Shown: piece by piece, positions 966-8,320 of the stretch
Layout of the letters: the number at the start of each line of letters is the position of its first letter
How positions within the stretch are numbered: the first letter of the stretch is position 1
Source of the DNA: an uncultured archaeon
GTDB taxonomy: Archaea > Asgardarchaeota > Lokiarchaeia > Sigyniarchaeales > SOKP01
Assembly: GCA_964538145.1 (NCBI GenBank)
Contig: CAZIEC010000003.1
Location: 21,368 to 53,963 of the forward strand
Direction: 5' to 3'
DNA length: 32,596 bases
The notes under the pieces: generated by a model
Databases searched by the model: none
What the model was told of the DNA's origin: nothing
Seen by the model: only the letters and a program-made list of their open reading frames with translations
Program-made: the position numbers and the translations under genes

Positions 966-2375
966 TTATCTTAATTGCCTGAATTCAGACGCTATTTTTT
1001 GGAGGCGATCAATCAATTCTTTTGTATTAGTACTTTTTTCAACTACTTGATTAAATTTTTCATCCAAATCATTGATTAATTTTATTAAATTATCTTCTGT
1101 AGAGTTAAAATTTGTTGATAAAGAATCTAAGATAACTTCATGAAATTCTTTAACTTTATTTTCGCAGGCTTTAACTTGTTCTCCATTAGAATTAATCTCT
1201 CCTTCAAGATTTCGAATTTTTTCACTGTTTTGATTGATCTTGGAAGAAATTGCATCTAAAATTCTCTCAAAGGTATTTGAAATTTTATCAAATTGACTGT
1301 TTATATCATCATTAATTTTCAAAAGCAAGGATTCTAATTCTGATTCAATGAACTTCCTATAATTTTCTTGTTCTTTCAGACTATTATCTAAAGATTCTGA
1401 AATGCTAGAAACAAAAACATTTGAAATTTCATTGAATTTTTTTTCAAAATAATTTTGTAATCCCTCTAATCCATTATTTATCGTGGTTTTTAATTGGTTT
1501 ATTGAACTTTTAAGATATCTACTCCCCTTAATACTCCCCTCTTCAACATCTATTAACCATTGTTCTAATTGTTTATTAAATGGTTGAGCAAAAGAATTTA
1601 CAAGAGCCATGGTACCATCTGTTATCCCCTTACTCAAAGATTGAATTTTATTTTCAATTTCTACGATATCTTGTTCAACCATTTCCTTTTTTTGTAAGGG
1701 AATCTCCTGTAAATCACCCTGAGATGGTTTTACATGTTCTCCATATTCATGGATAAGAATTTGATCTTTTCTTTGAATGCTCTCTACTAAATGTTGAACC
1801 CATTTAAAAAATTCTAAAGTTTTAGGAGGTTCTAATTGACAATTAATCTCAATTAATTCATCATGCTTGTTATGATCTTTAAATCGATATGCTTGAAAGG
1901 AAAATATGCTCTTTTTTTCAACTTTAATGGGATCAAAAGTTAAACAAAAAGCATTTGGAAAATTATCATTTTGGAAATATCTATGTATTTGAATATCTGC
2001 TGATGTAAGTTTCAAATCATATTTTGGGTGCGATATATACCAACCAATGATCCGTAATGATTCATTAGAATGTTCCATTTTAATTTTATCTAAAAGAGCT
2101 TCCAATTCTCTTGAAAGACCTAATTCAATATAGTCGCCATGGGTCAATGGAATACATTCTTTCACGATCAATACATTCTTCTCATTATTTTCTTGTTCTC
2201 CTAAACAAACTCCCATTGCTTCTACGGGGGTTTCTAAAAAAGAATTTCCAAATCTTAGAATGTGAAAGATCATTTTCTTAAATGCTTCTGGCTTTATTAT
2301 TATTTTATCCAAACTCTTTGTTGTTAAGCCTTTCTCTTTACTTTCATTAACTTGATCTTCTAAATTATTTTCCAT
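966..2375 (-). CDS. MPN- (degenerate JAMM) domain protein with a ~240-aa C-terminal helical/coiled-coil region
   Basis: The MPN scaffold is kept (E52 in PVEAMGVCLG; IIGWY-ISHP), but the canonical HxHx7Sx2D reads I114-S-H116-x7-T124-x2-D127 (nt 1995-2036). The first zinc-ligand His is therefore Ile and the Ser is Thr. Residues ~230-469 are K/E/N/S-rich and heptad-like. The ATG at 2375 directly abuts the TAA (2376-2378) of the upstream gene, and AGGAGGT lies 8 nt upstream. Confidence 0.85.
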   Translation of the reverse strand: MENNLEDQVNESKEKGLTTKSLDKIIIKPEAFKKMIFHILRFGNSFLETPVEAMGVCLGEQENNEKNVLIVKECIPLTHGDYIELGLSRELEALLDKIKMEHSNESLRIIGWYISHPKYDLKLTSADIQIHRYFQNDNFPNAFCLTFDPIKVEKKSIFSFQAYRFKDHNKHDELIEINCQLEPPKTLEFFKWVQHLVESIQRKDQILIHEYGEHVKPSQGDLQEIPLQKKEMVEQDIVEIENKIQSLSKGITDGTMALVNSFAQPFNKQLEQWLIDVEEGSIKGSRYLKSSINQLKTTINNGLEGLQNYFEKKFNEISNVFVSSISESLDNSLKEQENYRKFIESELESLLLKINDDINSQFDKISNTFERILDAISSKINQNSEKIRNLEGEINSNGEQVKACENKVKEFHEVILDSLSTNFNSTEDNLIKLINDLDEKFNQVVEKSTNTKELIDRLQKIASEFRQLR

Positions 2376-3863
2376 TTAATCGACCTCCTTTTCGAATTTC
2401 TTAATTTTTTGGCTAAGATTTTCATTTTCCTTTTTCAATTCCTTGATTTTAGCGATTAATTCTTCTCTTTCTTCTTCTAATGATTTAATCTTATTAAAAA
2501 TAGGTTCCTTAGTGCTCTCGATGATTAAAACAATAGCCTTAAGATCTTCAAATAATTTTCTCGTTTCTACATCAAATGCTTGTATTTCTTTATCAATTTT
2601 ATTGAAATATTTTGAAATATTTTGAACAAATTTATCACTGATTTTCGAAAAATCCTCTTGAATTTGAGATTTGACCCTTTCAAGTTCTTTGGTTAATTCT
2701 TGGAGGTTAGAACGGTTATTTTTGAGTAATTCAGAAACTTTTTCAAGATTATCGTTGTTATTATTGAATAGATTTAAAGATTCTTCAAATTTTTTAAAAA
2801 AATCATCTAATTTTTCTTCAAGTTTTTTGCTAAACGATTCCTTTAACAGATTTTTTAATTTATTAGAAAAATCTACGATATAATTCTTTGAATTATCTAT
2901 TTTTTCATTGTAAACGTCAAGTTTATCACTGATATAAAAATCTAAACTGTTCATTTTATCATGCAAGGAATAATTAAAGTTTTTTTGGATTTCCATCATG
3001 CTTTTACTTAAATTCAATTTTAATTGTACTAAATCTTCTCGTATATTCATGTTATTAATAAATACATTCTTCAATAACTTCTGGCTCCAGTTATTTAATA
3101 AGTCCATGAATGGATCTAATGAGTGCTTTAAGAATAGCGAAAATCCTTCTTGAAAAGATTTGATGATTGCTGTAGCAGAGAACTCTGGTTTTTTAACCAT
3201 CAAATCTTCTTTTTTTGGGATGTACAAATCTTCAAAAAAATCAGTTGTTTCATTCAATTCTAAAATAGGAGCTTCCCCAGTATAAAGGTTCTGAATTAAT
3301 TCAATTATTTTATTATAGAAATCAACATTATCAGGAGGTTCAACAATAGCTTTAACTTCATGATATCCTGACCCCCTGCTCTTTGTTGGATCATCTAGTC
3401 TAAATGCTCTAAACCCAGGATCTCCAGGGGTTTCTAACAAATTATGATCAAAAACTAAGCCAATACCACTTGGATTTTTGGCTTGCCAAAACAATTGGTT
3501 TTGCACGTCCGTGCCACTAAAGAAAGGCGTTAAATTGGGATGGCTATGATACCAACCACAACTAAACCATCCTTCATGACCGTGTTCTTCAAATACTTTA
3601 TTATCTATTTCTGCAAAAGCCCCCAATTGTTCTGGAGAATATCTCACCTCTATTGCTCCTCCATGTGATACCGGAATGGCATCTTCAATTATAAGAAATT
3701 TTTTTCCATCTTTTTCATCAATATGTCCGATTAATCCTCCCATTACTTCTTTACATTGTGTAGGATCTTTGACTTTAGATCCAAATCGAAGTACATGAAC
3801 GAGCATCTTGTAATAAGCTAGCGGTTTTACGATTACGGGTATATCTTCAGTATTCTTTGGCAT
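2376..3863 (-). CDS. MPN+ JAMM metalloisopeptidase-like protein with a ~270-aa C-terminal coiled-coil region
   Basis: Complete JAMM signature: E39 (CKEVMGGLIG) and GWYHSHPNLTPFFSGTD = H106-x-H108-x7-S116-x2-D119 (nt 3507-3548). The C-terminal half is a long K/E/N/L heptad-rich helical region ending ...EEREELIAKIKELKKENENLSQKIKKFEKEVD. Confidence 0.9.
   Translation of the reverse strand: MPKNTEDIPVIVKPLAYYKMLVHVLRFGSKVKDPTQCKEVMGGLIGHIDEKDGKKFLIIEDAIPVSHGGAIEVRYSPEQLGAFAEIDNKVFEEHGHEGWFSCGWYHSHPNLTPFFSGTDVQNQLFWQAKNPSGIGLVFDHNLLETPGDPGFRAFRLDDPTKSRGSGYHEVKAIVEPPDNVDFYNKIIELIQNLYTGEAPILELNETTDFFEDLYIPKKEDLMVKKPEFSATAIIKSFQEGFSLFLKHSLDPFMDLLNNWSQKLLKNVFINNMNIREDLVQLKLNLSKSMMEIQKNFNYSLHDKMNSLDFYISDKLDVYNEKIDNSKNYIVDFSNKLKNLLKESFSKKLEEKLDDFFKKFEESLNLFNNNNDNLEKVSELLKNNRSNLQELTKELERVKSQIQEDFSKISDKFVQNISKYFNKIDKEIQAFDVETRKLFEDLKAIVLIIESTKEPIFNKIKSLEEEREELIAKIKELKKENENLSQKIKKFEKEVD
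2383..2389 (-). promoter_or_regulatory. Shine-Dalgarno (AGGAGGT) for the MPN- gene, embedded in the 3' end of the MPN+ gene (translational coupling)
   Basis: Plus strand reads acctcct, so minus-strand sense reads AAGGAGGTCGATTAA-ATG. The stop codon of 2376..3863 is immediately followed by the start codon at 2375. Confidence 0.6.
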
Positions 3864-4182
3864 AAAAAATTCACTTTTTCTTGTTAATTTTTTACTTTTA
3901 ATTATTAATTCTTTAAATCTTTTAAATCTTTAAATAAAATCTCATTTTCATTATAGATATTAATAGTAGGATTCTTTTTTAAAGCTGTACTTATTAAGGA
4001 TGAAAATTAATCTTAACAGATCTCCAAACTAATCATATCAATATTGCTTTGAATATTTTTTTATTAATTTTTAACCTTAATGAGGAATAAGAACAAAGAA
4101 TTTACTAATTTACATATTAATTTAAAAAATTTCTTAAAAAATGATTAAACTCATTTAAAAATAGAATAAACAAAATAGAAAA

Positions 4183-4848
4183 TTAAAATGGTAGAGGTTT
4201 ACCGCAATATGGGCAGAATTTCCAATTCAAATCTTTTCCACATGAAGGGCAAACTCTTGAATCAGTAGAAGGAGGTTCATATCCAGGTATTGGAGGTAAT
4301 TCTCGAGTAGGTCTTATAATTTTAACAGGTTTAGAAGGATGGGAGTGCGATACTGGAGTTGAGGAAGATGTAGTTCCAACTACTTCTTCTTTTTTTGCCA
4401 TCAATCTTTCTTTAAAGGCTTGACGCAAGTCTTCTTTACTCGTCATTCCTTCCTCTTTAACCCAACCAGAAACTTTTGGACGTTTCAATTCACTTTCAGG
4501 TACTTTTTCCAATACAACTTTTTTAGTTTCTGAGATTGGTGCCATGACCTTCTTTTGTTCCTTATTTTGAATTGCTTGCTTAATTAATGCTTGAGTTGTT
4601 TTCATTACTTGATGTGGATTAATGTTTGGGATTGCAACAGTTCTTAAAACCCATCCAACAATCATATTTTGATTGGGGAATCCAGACGATGTAATATCTT
4701 CATCTTTATACACGTACGAATCGATTACATTATTACCTTTTAATAATCTTGAAGCCCATTTACCATTTATAAGACCTAATTGGAGTCTATATGATGTCCC
4801 AGCAATTCCTAATTGGCTCGAGAGAGGCTCAAATCCTTTTTCTGACAT
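4183..4848 (-). CDS. Hypothetical protein: ~100-aa N-terminal globular domain, Lys/Glu/Pro-rich low-complexity linker, C-terminal CxxC-x8-CxxC zinc ribbon
   Basis: C-terminus is RVCPSCGKDLNWKFCPYCGKPLPF. The linker reads ...SSSTPVSHSHPSKPVKIIRPTRELPPIPGYEPPSTD. The N-terminal family is not recognised. Confidence 0.7.
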   Translation of the reverse strand: MSEKGFEPLSSQLGIAGTSYRLQLGLINGKWASRLLKGNNVIDSYVYKDEDITSSGFPNQNMIVGWVLRTVAIPNINPHQVMKTTQALIKQAIQNKEQKKVMAPISETKKVVLEKVPESELKRPKVSGWVKEEGMTSKEDLRQAFKERLMAKKEEVVGTTSSSTPVSHSHPSKPVKIIRPTRELPPIPGYEPPSTDSRVCPSCGKDLNWKFCPYCGKPLPF

Positions 4849-5005
4849 GATAATCCGTTATTTTTTCAATTAAAATATTTGATTTTATTCTGTATATTAT
4901 ATGTAAAAATTTTAATTTAAATTATGTTATGTTTCTAAAAAAAAATACATAAATAACCTAAGTTTTATGTAATGAATTAAGAAAATTATAATTAAAGTTT
5001 CTTTC

Positions 5006-5956
5006 ATGACAGTCATCATACCAAAAAAAGCATATTTAACTATTGTAGCAGCAAGCGTTAGATTTGCCAATCAGAAAATTCCTAGAGATGATTGGTTGGA
5101 AGTTAGCGGAATATTTATAGGAAAAAACGAGGGAAATGATGTGATAATCTCGAAAGCTTATCCCATCATGCATCAAGAATTAGATAAAGATGCAGTTATC
5201 GATCAATATAAGTGGAGCGATGAAGACATGATAGTTGCATCTGAGATTGAATTAGAAGCTTATGAAAGAAATGAATTCATTGTAGGATGGTGGCATAGTC
5301 ATCCAGGTTTTAAAGTGATGATGAGTCATATAGATATTAAAACAACTCTTTCATATCAACAACACAATCCATTAGCAATTTCTTTAGTATTTAACCCTGA
5401 AAGATTATTACGTCAAATAGAATTACCCAATAAAAAAGGAGATCCTGTAAAGCAGTTAAAGAACGATCCTGGATTTAAAATTTTTAGATTAGATGATGTC
5501 TCCAAAGGAATTCAAGCATCATATCATGAAGTAGATTATAAGATTGAAGGGTATGACAGTTTAGACCAATTAGTAAAACTTACTCAAAAATTTATTATTG
5601 ACATTACGAATTTCTTTCCAAAAGATAATATCTATGAAGTTTATGAGAGCTTTATTGATGAAAGAATCAATAAATTAGAATCCATTCTGTTAGGTACTGA
5701 AGAATATCTAAAAACTTTAGCCCGAACGGGCGAATCACACAGAATTTCTGAAGTATTAGATAATCAAGTAAAAGAAATCAGAAAATATGTTGCTGAAACT
5801 TATATTAAAATCGAAAATATCAGAGAGTTCATGGATTACTTGGAATACAAGGAGAGAGATGCAGTCATTCCTAAGGTAAACGAAATATTGTTGAGATGGG
5901 ACGAAACCATATCAACATTAGATGAAAAAATTGAGAATTTAAAGAAAGTCGTTTAA
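5006..5956 (+). CDS. MPN+ JAMM metalloisopeptidase-like protein (316 aa) with a ~130-aa C-terminal helical region
   Basis: E32 (WLEVSGIFIG) and VGWWHSHPGFKVMMSHID = H97-x-H99-x7-S107-x2-D110 (nt 5294-5335). C-terminal helical segment reads ...LESILLGTEEYLKTLARTGE...STLDEKIENLKKVV. Confidence 0.9.
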   Translation: MTVIIPKKAYLTIVAASVRFANQKIPRDDWLEVSGIFIGKNEGNDVIISKAYPIMHQELDKDAVIDQYKWSDEDMIVASEIELEAYERNEFIVGWWHSHPGFKVMMSHIDIKTTLSYQQHNPLAISLVFNPERLLRQIELPNKKGDPVKQLKNDPGFKIFRLDDVSKGIQASYHEVDYKIEGYDSLDQLVKLTQKFIIDITNFFPKDNIYEVYESFIDERINKLESILLGTEEYLKTLARTGESHRISEVLDNQVKEIRKYVAETYIKIENIREFMDYLEYKERDAVIPKVNEILLRWDETISTLDEKIENLKKVV

Positions 5957-6112: not shown

Positions 6113-8320
6113 ATGAAAAAAATAAATTTTCCTTTTACAGCAATATTAGGTCAAGATAAAATGAAATTGGGGCTCATTCTCAACATCATAGACCCCCAAA
6201 TAGGAGGCATCTTATTAACGGGACAACAAGGAACGGGCAAATCTACTGCGGTTCGTTCTTTGGTCGATGTGATGCCAAAAATTGAAGTTGTTAAAGGATG
6301 CACTTTTTCTTGTGATCCAAAATCAGATTTAGAAGATTTATGTGAAGAATGTAGAGAAAAGAAAAAAAATAATAATTTAGAAATAATAACAAGAAAAATG
6401 CGAATTGTAAACCTTCCTTTAGGAGTTACTGAAGATATGGTCTGTGGTTCATTATCCATAGATAAGGTAATTAGTGAAGGGATCAAGAGCTTGCATCCTG
6501 GACTATTAGCAAAAGCAAATAGGGGAATACTCTATGTGGATGAAATAAATTTATTACAAGATCATATTGTCGATGTTCTTTTAGATGCTGCTGCTTCTGG
6601 GGTAAATATTATAGAAAGAGAGGGGATTTCTGTATCACATCCTTCTCGTTTTGTTTTAGTAGGGAGCATGAATCCAGAGGAAGGTGATCTTAGGCCTCAA
6701 ATAGCTGATCGCCTTGGATTAGAAGTAAAAATCGAAGCTCCTCGTGATCCTAAATTGAGAGCAGAAATTACAAAACGAGTTATTGAATTCAATGATAATC
6801 CAAAAGAATTCATTAAAAGATTTGAAAAGGAGCAAGAAATATTAAGAGATAAAATAGTTCGAGCTAGACAAATTTTAAAACAAGTAGAGATTCCCGCAAC
6901 GGTTTATGAATTTGTATCAATGATTGTAAATGAGTTAGGAATCTTTTCTCAGCGAGCAGATATTACTTTTATTAGATGTGCCCGGGCTCATGCTGCATTT
7001 AATGGGAGAACTCACATAGAGGAAGAAGACTTGAATGTTGCTTTAGATTTAGTTTTTGAACACCGCATCCAATCACTCCATTATGAAATGACTCCAGAAG
7101 AAATTAAAGGAAAGATCACGGAAGTATATGGAAAAATTCAGAAAGCATATGAAGATCCTAAAGCATATCAACCAAATAGGGAAACTGAAGGTCCAATGAA
7201 ATATGATGATACGCCTCAAAAAGAATTTAAAAGGCAATCAATAGATCCCAAGAAAGTATCGATCCCAGAAACTAAAGAACAAAAATTGCCCCCTCCTAAA
7301 TATCCTGATAACAAAAAGAGAACTCCCGAACCAGCTGGAGGATGGAAAGTTAAAGACATCCCTCGTGAGGAAATTGATTTTAATTTCTTTAAAAACAACC
7401 TCAACACGGCGATGCCTTTAATTTACAAGATGGAAAAAAAGATGACTTCAATTTTAGACAATATTAGAAAGGATAGGAAAGTTTCTGATTATGGTGGAAG
7501 GGGAATTGGGAGAAGAATAAAAATCGCTTCAAGCCAAAAAGGAAGATATGTTTCTTATAGAGCGCCATTAAATCGTCCAAAAAGCTTAGCTTTAGATGCA
7601 ACAATAAGAAATTTTTTGAAAAATACAATCTACAATCGAACAGATTTAAAGTTTCCATTAAAATTTGATAAATATGATTTAATGGATAAAATCTATGAAT
7701 ACAGGGCTCCATTAGTTCTATTTTTCGTGTTAGACAGCTCGGCATCAATGTACTATGTCATAAAGCAGATGACGGATGTAATAATGTCTTTACAAAAAGA
7801 AGGTTATAGAAAAAAAGATAAAATCAGCTTGATAATCTTTAGAGGTAAGGAAGCAATAGTTTTGCAGAAGCCTACAGTTAATTTTAAGAGTGCCATAGGA
7901 AAACTTAAGAAAATTGAAGGGAGATCATACACACCAATGGCTGCGGCATTAAAAAAATGCATGAAACTGATTGAAGCTGAAAAACTTAAAAATAGAAATG
8001 TTATTCCAGTTATTTTCATATGTTCTGATTGTGGTGCTAATATTTCTGTAAAATATCCAGATCTAATAGCTCAAGTTCAAAGTGATTATAAATTAATCAT
8101 CAATGAATTAAAAGAGTTGACAAAATCTCTAAATAAAAAGGGAGTTCACATAGTTGTTCTTGAACCAAAGAAAAGCTATGCTACAAGGGCTCTCGGTGTA
8201 AACACATTTGCGGCTGATCAAATTAAAAAGAATTTTAAAACTTATGCTAAAGCTGAAATTTTTCAATTTGATAGATATAACCCTAAAAGTTTAATACTTG
8301 AATTAAAAAAGATCTTATAA
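6113..8320 (+). CDS. Fused ChlI/BchI-type AAA+ ATPase plus Pro-rich linker plus ChlD-type vWA (MIDAS) domain protein
   Basis: The N-terminus FPFTAILGQDKMKLGLILNIIDPQIGGILLTGQQGTGKST is the classic ChlI/BchI opening, with Walker A at nt 6221-6247. Cys-rich insert CTFSCDP...LCEEC; Walker B GILYVDEINLL; linker ...KLPPPKYPDNKKRTPEPAGG. The vWA MIDAS is LFFVLDSSASM (D541-S-S-A-S, nt 7733-7747), plus downstream YTPM and SDCGAN. Confidence 0.9.
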   Translation: MKKINFPFTAILGQDKMKLGLILNIIDPQIGGILLTGQQGTGKSTAVRSLVDVMPKIEVVKGCTFSCDPKSDLEDLCEECREKKKNNNLEIITRKMRIVNLPLGVTEDMVCGSLSIDKVISEGIKSLHPGLLAKANRGILYVDEINLLQDHIVDVLLDAAASGVNIIEREGISVSHPSRFVLVGSMNPEEGDLRPQIADRLGLEVKIEAPRDPKLRAEITKRVIEFNDNPKEFIKRFEKEQEILRDKIVRARQILKQVEIPATVYEFVSMIVNELGIFSQRADITFIRCARAHAAFNGRTHIEEEDLNVALDLVFEHRIQSLHYEMTPEEIKGKITEVYGKIQKAYEDPKAYQPNRETEGPMKYDDTPQKEFKRQSIDPKKVSIPETKEQKLPPPKYPDNKKRTPEPAGGWKVKDIPREEIDFNFFKNNLNTAMPLIYKMEKKMTSILDNIRKDRKVSDYGGRGIGRRIKIASSQKGRYVSYRAPLNRPKSLALDATIRNFLKNTIYNRTDLKFPLKFDKYDLMDKIYEYRAPLVLFFVLDSSASMYYVIKQMTDVIMSLQKEGYRKKDKISLIIFRGKEAIVLQKPTVNFKSAIGKLKKIEGRSYTPMAAALKKCMKLIEAEKLKNRNVIPVIFICSDCGANISVKYPDLIAQVQSDYKLIINELKELTKSLNKKGVHIVVLEPKKSYATRALGVNTFAADQIKKNFKTYAKAEIFQFDRYNPKSLILELKKIL

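Follow-up and report, generated by a model that had tools for sequence, protein, structure and literature searches.

In a 32,596-nt stretch of a Lokiarchaeal genome (the window, which here always means that whole stretch), the open reading frame (ORF) at positions 5006-5956 encodes MPN3, a 316-aa protein that is probably, as predicted from its sequence, a catalytically competent JAMM/MPN+ zinc isopeptidase. The explanation that we favour, with due reserve, is that MPN3 acts as a dedicated isopeptidase for ubiquitin or ubiquitin-like proteins (Ubl) and is targeted via its C-terminal three-helix tail, perhaps also by the Zn-ribbon protein that is encoded divergently from it. In sequence comparisons MPN3 is an old, highly conserved orthologous group, apparently found only in the class of the source genome (Lokiarchaeia), and it is the Zn-ribbon gene, not the other two MPN genes of the window, that is its lasting neighbour. 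In addition, MPN3 genes of at least 12 Lokiarchaeal lineages host, inside the JAMM motif itself, a candidate pre-mRNA intron of the bulge-helix-bulge (BHB) type that the archaeal splicing endonuclease would, in our judgement, probably remove. The window lies on contig C3, in an assembly of 2.64 Mb with 82% completeness (G+C 26-33%). The features of the subject gene are as follows.

5006..5956, + strand: MPN3, the subject gene, a 316-aa MPN+ (JAMM) protein that translates without a stop.
5006-5545, + strand: MPN domain of MPN3 (residues ~1-180).
5099-5101, + strand: codon of E32, within 'WLEVSG'.
5294..5335, + strand: JAMM zinc motif H97-S-H99-x7-S107-x2-D110.
5627..5953, + strand: three-helix, spectrin-repeat-like bundle of the tail (residues 208-316; model and alignment).

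The catalytic residues of MPN3 can be read directly from its stop-free translation, in which WWHSHPGFKVMMSHID supplies H97-x-H99-x7-S107-x2-D110; together with E32, these make up the intact JAMM that an earlier note on this DNA had described at 5006-5956. With the Pfam profile JAB (PF01398), MPN3 reaches 52.4 bits, the cut-off being 22.5. At E <= 0.01 the Pfam scan gave nothing beyond JAB and Prok-JAB, including no C-terminal domain of the Rpn8/Rpn11 type such as MitMem_reg or CSN5_C, and no NCBIfam model was obtained for MPN3. Among 28 aligned orthologues that are 31-76% identical to the window protein, E32, H97, H99 and D110 are invariant, while S107 is kept in at least 90% and is Thr in two; the same alignment shows two conserved tail motifs, GTEEYL..TL.RKGE and YLEYKER. 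A phmmer search of the PDB matched the Rpn11, CSN5 and BRCC36 families, with CsRpn11 as the best hit (E 8.5e-10). The catalytic motif, the profile score and the MPN fold all agree with membership of MPN3 in the JAMM/MPN+ family.

The AlphaFold2 model of MPN3 is of high confidence (predicted local distance difference test 92.2, predicted template modelling score 0.88). It comprises the MPN domain at residues 1-180 and helices at 186-315, namely a short helix followed by three long ones at 209-315, so that the ~130-aa helical tail announced in the earlier note is borne out. Judging from the model, the head is a typical eukaryote-type MPN+ domain with an Rpn11/CSN5/BRCC36-like fold. Rpn11 is the best structural match (Z 17.9 over 154 residues, root mean square deviation (rmsd) 3.8), and Caldiarchaeum Rpn11 (Z 16.5), CSN5 (Z 15.4), BRCC36 (Z 15.3) and Pyrococcus JAMM1 (Z 14.3) come after it; Foldseek places CSN5, BRCC36 and Rpn11 alike at E ~1e-10, with a whole-model TM score of ~0.4. 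Solved subunits of the proteasome lid and of the CSN overlay the MPN domain only, the rmsd being 13-20 A once the tail is included. At Z ~10 the tail resembles spectrin repeats and designed three-helix bundles, a similarity of a generic kind, and it fits none of the C-terminal domains characterised in these MPN families.

Orthologues were sought in 301 genomes of the phylum. Full-length MPN3 was found in all 68 genomes of the window's own family (55-76% identity to the window protein), in all seven genomes of the sister family (40-43%) and in one further genome of the class (31%), and the other Asgard genomes gave domain-level matches only, with E values from 1e-6 to 1e-18. The homologues carry the source labels Promethearchaeota or Lokiarchaeia. 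With MPN3 as the query, the number of MPN matches per genome is 5-7 in the own family, 1-4 in the sister family and 1-3 in other Asgard genomes, the last reaching up to 4 with the Pfam profile. Ratios of nonsynonymous to synonymous substitution rates (dN/dS) between MPN3 orthologues are 0.03-0.17, hence the gene is under strong purifying selection, and MPN3 is the most conserved among the long-tailed MPN paralogues of the source lineage.

Altogether five MPN genes were found in the source genome: MPN3, its two neighbours in the window and two MPN+ paralogues on other contigs. Of the latter, the 555-aa protein (C46:9176-10843, - strand) has a TPR-like C-terminal region, with a run of N near its end in the assembly, and the 421-aa protein (C5:23843-25108, + strand) has a helical tail; within the family the two form separate orthologous groups, both of them conserved. 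The two neighbours are the following.

2376..3863, - strand: MPN+ paralogue of 495 aa with an intact HSH..S..D and a long coiled-coil tail, in a clade distinct from MPN3.
966..2375, - strand: MPN-minus (MPN-) paralogue of 469 aa with ISHP...TSAD, the tandem partner of the 495-aa MPN+ protein.

The earlier note had counted three MPN genes in 5 kb. All three do lie within 966-5956, and both neighbours exceed the PF01398 cut-off; yet the product of 966-2375 reads 'WYISHP...TSAD', with the first zinc-binding His replaced by Ile and the Ser by Thr, so the count becomes two intact JAMM genes and one degenerate, MPN-minus-like gene. MPN3 is 36% identical to the 555-aa and 32% to the 421-aa paralogue, and only 29% and 26% to its window neighbours. 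A tree was built by maximum likelihood from 44 MPN domains, with four rows excluded as long-branch or truncated and no eukaryotic sequences included. In it, support for the MPN3 clade is 100/100 inside the family, 84/92 together with the sister family and 84/93 together with the class-level genome. The 495-aa MPN+ and 469-aa MPN- proteins, both accompanied by orthologues of their own, come out as sister clades (100/98), the 555-aa group and the 421-aa group stand as separate clades (100/100 each) and the short pan-Asgard MPN proteins cluster apart (94/58); the branching order among the Lokiarchaeal MPN groups is left without resolution. The option that the three genes are recent paralogues, which the earlier note had put up for a phylogenetic check, thus fails: the clades are old and distinct, and MPN3 is not a recent copy of a neighbour.

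A second line of results concerns orthologues in which the MPN3 gene is interrupted. The point of interruption in the window copy, which is itself without the insert, and the insert regions of the other copies are listed below.

5309..5314 of the window, + strand: codons of F102 and K103; in orthologues the insert falls between 5311 and 5312.
L048:10124-10213, - strand: insert region.
L113:1009-1098, + strand: insert region.
L114:1366-1455, - strand: insert region.
L115:1308-1397, - strand: insert region.
L116:444-533, L117:402-491, L118:436-525 and L035:1786-1875: insert regions.
L135-L138: further insert regions.

The insert is found between the F102 and K103 codons, inside HxHx7Sx2D, in eight species of the neighbouring genus g2, and four further insert-bearing MPN3 records from public assemblies bring the total to at least 12 lineages; at least 13 protein clusters of N-terminal MPN3 fragments stop at the same point. 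It is 30-38 nt long, contains stop codons and often has a length that is not a multiple of three. When it is removed by script in eight genomes, an uninterrupted frame of 315-316 aa results, with the motif intact. The insert fits the definition of a BHB that is given in section 4.8 of bioRxiv 10.64898/2026.10.13.758758. In its central helix, GGCT, the exon's final four nucleotides ahead of the 5' bulge, is paired with AGCT, the four nucleotides of the intron that precede the 3' bulge. All four central pairs are present in the 11 inserts scored by script, and the twelfth, read by eye, has the same GGCT/AGCT helix. Both bulges are of 3 nt, with an inner helix (h') of 5-11 bp or an outer helix (h) of 3 bp. 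BHB cleavage falls between bulge nucleotides 2 and 3, and cuts placed accordingly give G101-F102|K103-V104 at each of the insert lengths 30, 31, 32 and 38 nt.

Covariation points in the same direction. Genome G243 has a compensatory GGTT/AACT central helix in place of GGCT/AGCT, double changes occur in seven pairs of the insert structure compared with 1.8 in shuffles (0/500), and 83% of cells are paired, compared with 19-52% after sliding of the partners. Of the 12 insert-bearing genes, 11 use GGC for Gly101; in insert-free MPN genes, a comparison set that includes other paralogues and whose rows are not independent, GGC accounts for 8 of the 60 Gly codons found there. Insert-bearing species are scattered on the gene tree; for instance, G213 groups with 99% support as the sister of G008 and G171, neither of which has the insert. 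At least two changes of insert state are forced by strongly supported branches, and parsimony gives five.

Genes of the EndA family number one or two per genome tested. Four of the five genomes tested have two such tRNA-splicing-endonuclease genes of ~200 aa each, and one was found in G192. Two genes would fit a heteromeric enzyme of broad specificity. Those of the source genome are:

C23:5367-5591: EndA-family gene.
C157:2658-2906: EndA-family gene.

The gene beside MPN3 for a protein with AAA+ and von Willebrand factor A (vWA) domains provides a related observation, since in GCA_054384175.1 (L136:3260-3320), one of the assemblies with an insert in MPN3, its orthologue is called as two ORFs of 198 and 538 aa. 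The split coincides with a 30-nt insert that has a 7-bp inner helix, two 3-nt bulges and three out of four pairs in the central helix, and cutting by the same rule restores ...SMNPEE|GELRPQ....

Several other accounts of the MPN3 insert were tried and rejected. A pseudogene is at odds with both halves being open in all eight genomes checked and with a dN/dS of 0.03-0.17 in both halves, where synonymous sites are near saturation. As for a multi-copy mobile element, in five genomes the insert sequence occurs only at the MPN3 locus, with control rates elsewhere, and translational bypass with matched take-off and landing codons fails in four of eight genomes, where the insert does not start with AAA. 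Insert-bearing MPN3 may also be a split enzyme made in two pieces, an account that leaves the conserved BHB geometry without explanation. We found no report of BHB introns in Asgard protein-coding genes in the literature. The precedent for a candidate intron of this kind is the cbf5 intron of crenarchaea, with lineage-specific loss, as described in passages of PMC2738675.

The genes next to MPN3 were compared across 24 loci. On one strand of the window lie a 168-aa ORF, an 89-aa ORF, the MPN- and MPN+ genes and the Zn-ribbon gene; then follow MPN3 and the genes for the AAA+-vWA, ATP-grasp, Roadblock, coiled-coil and PHP proteins. The immediate neighbours are:

4183..4848, - strand: Zn-ribbon protein of 221 aa, divergent from MPN3.
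4849..5005: divergent intergenic region of 157 nt between the Zn-ribbon gene and MPN3.
6113..8320, + strand: fused ChlI/ChlD-type AAA+-vWA protein of 735 aa, downstream of MPN3.

Seven of the eight family genera sampled retain this gene order, some of them carrying inserts of 1.6-4.6 kb; in the remaining genus, g4, the MPN+/MPN- pair is found ~11 kb upstream of MPN3. Unrelated flanking genes (PHP, Roadblock and the 89-aa ORF) are equally well kept across this 12-kb region, and because the whole region is syntenic in the family, co-location there is weak evidence of shared function. All three MPN genes are within ~12 kb of each other in one family only. In the sister family, MPN3 is separated from both the MPN+/MPN- pair and the AAA+-vWA gene, and only the divergent Zn-ribbon gene stays beside it, in three of five loci (G165, G234 and G285). 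The earlier note's picture of MPN genes clustered with a Zn-ribbon and an AAA+-vWA protein therefore recurs in the family, at seven of the eight genera, and is reduced to the Zn-ribbon gene in the sister family. That note had also proposed that its reading would fall if the three genes belonged to unrelated clades never co-located in other genomes; half of this applies, the clades being distinct and the genes nonetheless co-located throughout one family.

These comparisons bear directly on whether MPN3 joins the MPN+/MPN- pair as the third subunit of a hetero-oligomeric MPN assembly, that is, of a BRISC- or lid-like deubiquitinase complex in which assembly of the products would keep the three genes together. 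We regard this as unlikely. The three genes do fall within 5-12 kb of each other in all eight sampled genera of the family, and all three proteins combine MPN heads with long helical tails; moreover, eukaryotic JAMM enzymes act as MPN+/MPN- assemblies joined by C-terminal helices, as is generally known and as passages of PMC4579573 describe. Yet the linkage within the family is uninformative, since unrelated genes of the 12-kb region are equally syntenic, and it does not hold outside: the tandem pair of G165 is on another contig than MPN3, and g10, a genus of the sister family, keeps MPN3, the pair not being detected there. The MPN- gene sits 2.6 kb from MPN3 but has the 495-aa MPN+ gene as its tandem partner and sister clade, and MPN3 falls outside the clade of this pair. 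In addition, the tail of MPN3 is modelled with high confidence as a self-contained three-helix bundle and not as an open coiled coil.

The divergent pairing of MPN3 with the Zn-ribbon gene is more persistent, as it is kept in all 15 loci of the family that have a Zn-ribbon match, and it persists in the three sister-family loci even though the Zn-ribbon and MPN3 proteins there are only 33-43% identical to those of the window. The Zn-ribbon protein starts with a conserved N-terminal domain (N-domain) of ~100 aa and ends in a C-terminal CxxC...CxxC ribbon; in between lies a disordered linker in which short motifs are conserved. The N-domain is confidently modelled with four strands followed by two helices, and its profile covers 135 representative clusters. 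A ubiquitin-like beta-grasp was considered for this domain and rejected, as the topology of the model disagrees with it. The predicted complex of MPN3 with the Zn-ribbon protein scored 0.00, which gives no verdict and counts neither for nor against binding.

Relatives of the N-domain occur in other architectures. In three family members (P0162, P0171 and P0235) it is fused behind a Ras-type small GTPase, and in two (P0154 and P0155) it stands in tandem; no MPN genes adjoin these tandem-domain homologues. In genus g10 (L059:6044-11276, G210, and L058:8012-11211, G089), MPN3 is divergently paired with a TBP-like gene, and ahead of MPN3 come a TFB-like gene and a Roadblock gene of 121 aa.

Our favoured explanation, the targeted ubiquitin or Ubl isopeptidase, also has to be set against the ATP-driven alternative, in which MPN3 and the downstream AAA+-vWA protein would form an unfolding and deconjugation module. 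By analogy, Rpn11 works with the proteasomal ATPases and the vWA protein Rpn10, and BRCC36 with the vWA protein MERIT40. The two genes are same-strand neighbours with a 157-nt spacer in most loci of the family, where the AAA+-vWA proteins are mostly 75-82% identical (62-71% in three loci). CobN was found in 15 of 41 family genomes and not in the source genome (82% complete), and since the AAA+-vWA gene is also kept where no CobN was found (e.g. G065, G008 and G030), a role other than in a chelatase is possible. In the source genome, a chelatase-type ATPase (6113-8320) is kept where its usual partner, the CobN-type large subunit, was not found. The protein itself is nevertheless a typical ChlI/ChlD chelatase-type ATPase, which matches TIGR02442 ('putative cobaltochelatase') with E 1e-177, below the cut-off, and is 50-58% identical to stand-alone ChlI-type ATPases of methanogens and bacteria. 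Inserts of 1.6-4.6 kb come between the gene and MPN3 in five loci of the family, and it is not near MPN3 in any locus of the sister family. A functional link between the two is therefore doubtful, and the module as a whole strikes us as very unlikely.

Just as poor are the prospects of MPN3 being a JAMM hydrolase or scaffold with a substrate other than ubiquitin or Ubl, tied to small-GTPase/Roadblock systems through the Zn-ribbon protein: the GTPase fusions just described, the tandem-Roadblock and Arf-like GTPase genes in the window and the Roadblock gene near MPN3 in G210 and G089 would fit, but the fusions are found in distant homologues of the Zn-ribbon neighbour and not of MPN3, so the link is indirect, and all characterised eukaryote-type PF01398 MPN+ enzymes with an intact motif are generally known to cleave (iso)peptide bonds of ubiquitin or Ubl.

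As for the machinery that would supply such substrates, the window has none. Among its ORFs of at least 100 aa there is no match to ubiquitin, ThiF or UQ_con, none of its 134 ORFs of at least 35 aa has Gly-Gly in the last 8 residues, and tblastn of the genome's own ubiquitin against the window gave nothing. The profile scans and tblastn thus agree with the earlier note, which had seen in this window no gene for a ubiquitin-like protein, E1 or E2 and no beta-grasp ORF ending in diGly. The absence applies to the window only: other contigs of the source genome carry an 84-aa ubiquitin-family protein ending in ...QAGGI, two ThiF-type E1 genes, one UQ_con E2 gene and five ThiS/MoaD/SAMP-like genes, of whose products three end in GG and one in GGL, the fifth C-terminus not being readable from the ORF set. 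The two genes whose products have an extended terminus are:

C87:2794-3048, - strand: ubiquitin-family gene of the genome, product ending in ...AGGI.
C31:11622-11813, + strand: ThiS-like gene, product ending in ...AGGL.

Before they could be conjugated, the GGI ubiquitin and the GGL ThiS-like protein would have to be trimmed at the C-terminus. Of the 81 genomes of the order, 77 gave a ubiquitin, including 38 of the 38 high-quality ones. In G165 (L111:4960-9313, + strand), ubiquitin (123-aa ORF), E1 (415 aa), E2 (175 aa) and a 266-aa MPN protein are encoded in a same-strand run that also holds an unassigned 396-aa protein and resembles a canonical archaeal ubiquitin operon with its own JAMM gene. 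The 266-aa MPN protein belongs to a different, pan-Asgard clade. Since this operon has an MPN gene of its own, the MPN genes of the window are extra paralogues and not replacements. The reading as a three-MPN module that does without ubiquitin is weakened by the ubiquitin machinery elsewhere in the genome, by the age of the paralogues and by the loss of linkage in the sister family; what holds is that MPN3 is an intact JAMM gene outside any ubiquitin/E1/E2 operon, with no such gene in the window or beside MPN3 in the 24 loci.

Taken as a targeted isopeptidase, MPN3 would remove ubiquitin or a ThiS/SAMP-like modifier from protein conjugates; alternatively it might trim precursors, such as the GGI ubiquitin and the GGL ThiS-like protein. 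The helical tail, and possibly the Zn-ribbon protein, would steer it to particular substrates or sites, and it would be one of 5-7 specialised deconjugases per genome and not an obligate third subunit of the MPN+/MPN- pair. The eukaryotic enzymes AMSH, BRCC36, CSN5 and Rpn11 are likewise directed by non-catalytic partners. Several observations weigh against this explanation. The substrate would follow from family membership alone, and none of the 24 related loci has a ubiquitin, Ubl, E1 or E2 gene beside MPN3. Because the ubiquitin-E1-E2 operon of G165 has its own MPN clade, MPN3 may act on something else. On the side of targeting, the structure search with the tail gave no characterised targeting domain, the fold search with the Zn-ribbon N-domain gave a best Z of 6.3 (a designed protein) and scattered PH-like matches at Z 4-5, and in genus g10 the Zn-ribbon gene is not beside MPN3, the TBP-like gene being there instead.

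The presence of 5-7 eukaryote-type MPN paralogues per genome, each with a helical tail of its own, suggests that JAMM proteins diversified into differently targeted deconjugases in this Lokiarchaeal lineage, be the paralogues related to eukaryotic subfamilies or not. MPN3 is a good candidate for biochemistry because it is the most conserved paralogue and has orthologues of ~40% identity in complete genomes of the sister family. If the candidate intron is spliced, it would be the first protein-coding BHB intron that we find reported for Asgard archaea. Pre-mRNA splicing by the archaeal tRNA endonuclease would thereby gain a second case, independent of the first, and this in the lineage that matters most for how eukaryotic gene structure arose. 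Gene callers would then systematically split such genes, and the position in the JAMM motif would let splicing gate the production of active isopeptidase.

In its short length, in its place in an archaeal protein-coding gene with a BHB at the exon-intron boundaries and in a patchy distribution that implies gains and/or losses, the MPN3 insert resembles the crenarchaeal cbf5 intron as passages of PMC2738675 present it. Unlike the latter, this candidate intron lies in another host gene, in the Asgard phylum and inside the catalytic motif of an enzyme.

Among the JAMM enzymes, Rpn11 and CsRpn11 (PDB 4o8x and 6fju) share with MPN3 the MPN+ fold and the E...HxHx7Sx2D zinc site. A passage of PMC6043591 has CsRpn11 processing a ubiquitin precursor, and the GGI ubiquitin of the window genome would likewise need processing. 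CsRpn11 is encoded in an operon with ubiquitin, E1 and E2, and Rpn11 belongs to the proteasome lid with Rpn8; MPN3 is found in neither context, and unlike Rpn11 it has a three-helix bundle as its tail. In BRCC36 and CSN5, as in MPN3, an MPN+ head is followed by C-terminal helices at a similar length (247-309 for the Foldseek targets), and the MPN-minus gene near MPN3 in the window recalls their partners, Abraxas/KIAA0157 for BRCC36 and CSN6 for CSN5. The tail of MPN3 is however predicted to fold on itself and not to pair, the MPN domain alone superposes, the sister family has lost the link to the MPN-minus gene and there is no signal of orthology to BRCC36 or CSN5 in the tree, which held no eukaryotic sequences. 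Eukaryotic Rpn11, CSN5, BRCC36 and AMSH are each the catalytic core of a different ubiquitin-handling machine. The match of MPN3 to the AMSH type is weak (E 1e-4, Z 13.3), lower than to Rpn11 or CSN5, and AMSH differs in having its helical MIT domain at the N-terminus, while MPN3 has no adjacent ESCRT gene. In overall design, the endosomal deubiquitinases AMSH, AMSH-LP and Sst2 are nonetheless like MPN3, which is predicted to be a stand-alone MPN+ enzyme with a non-catalytic helical targeting domain.

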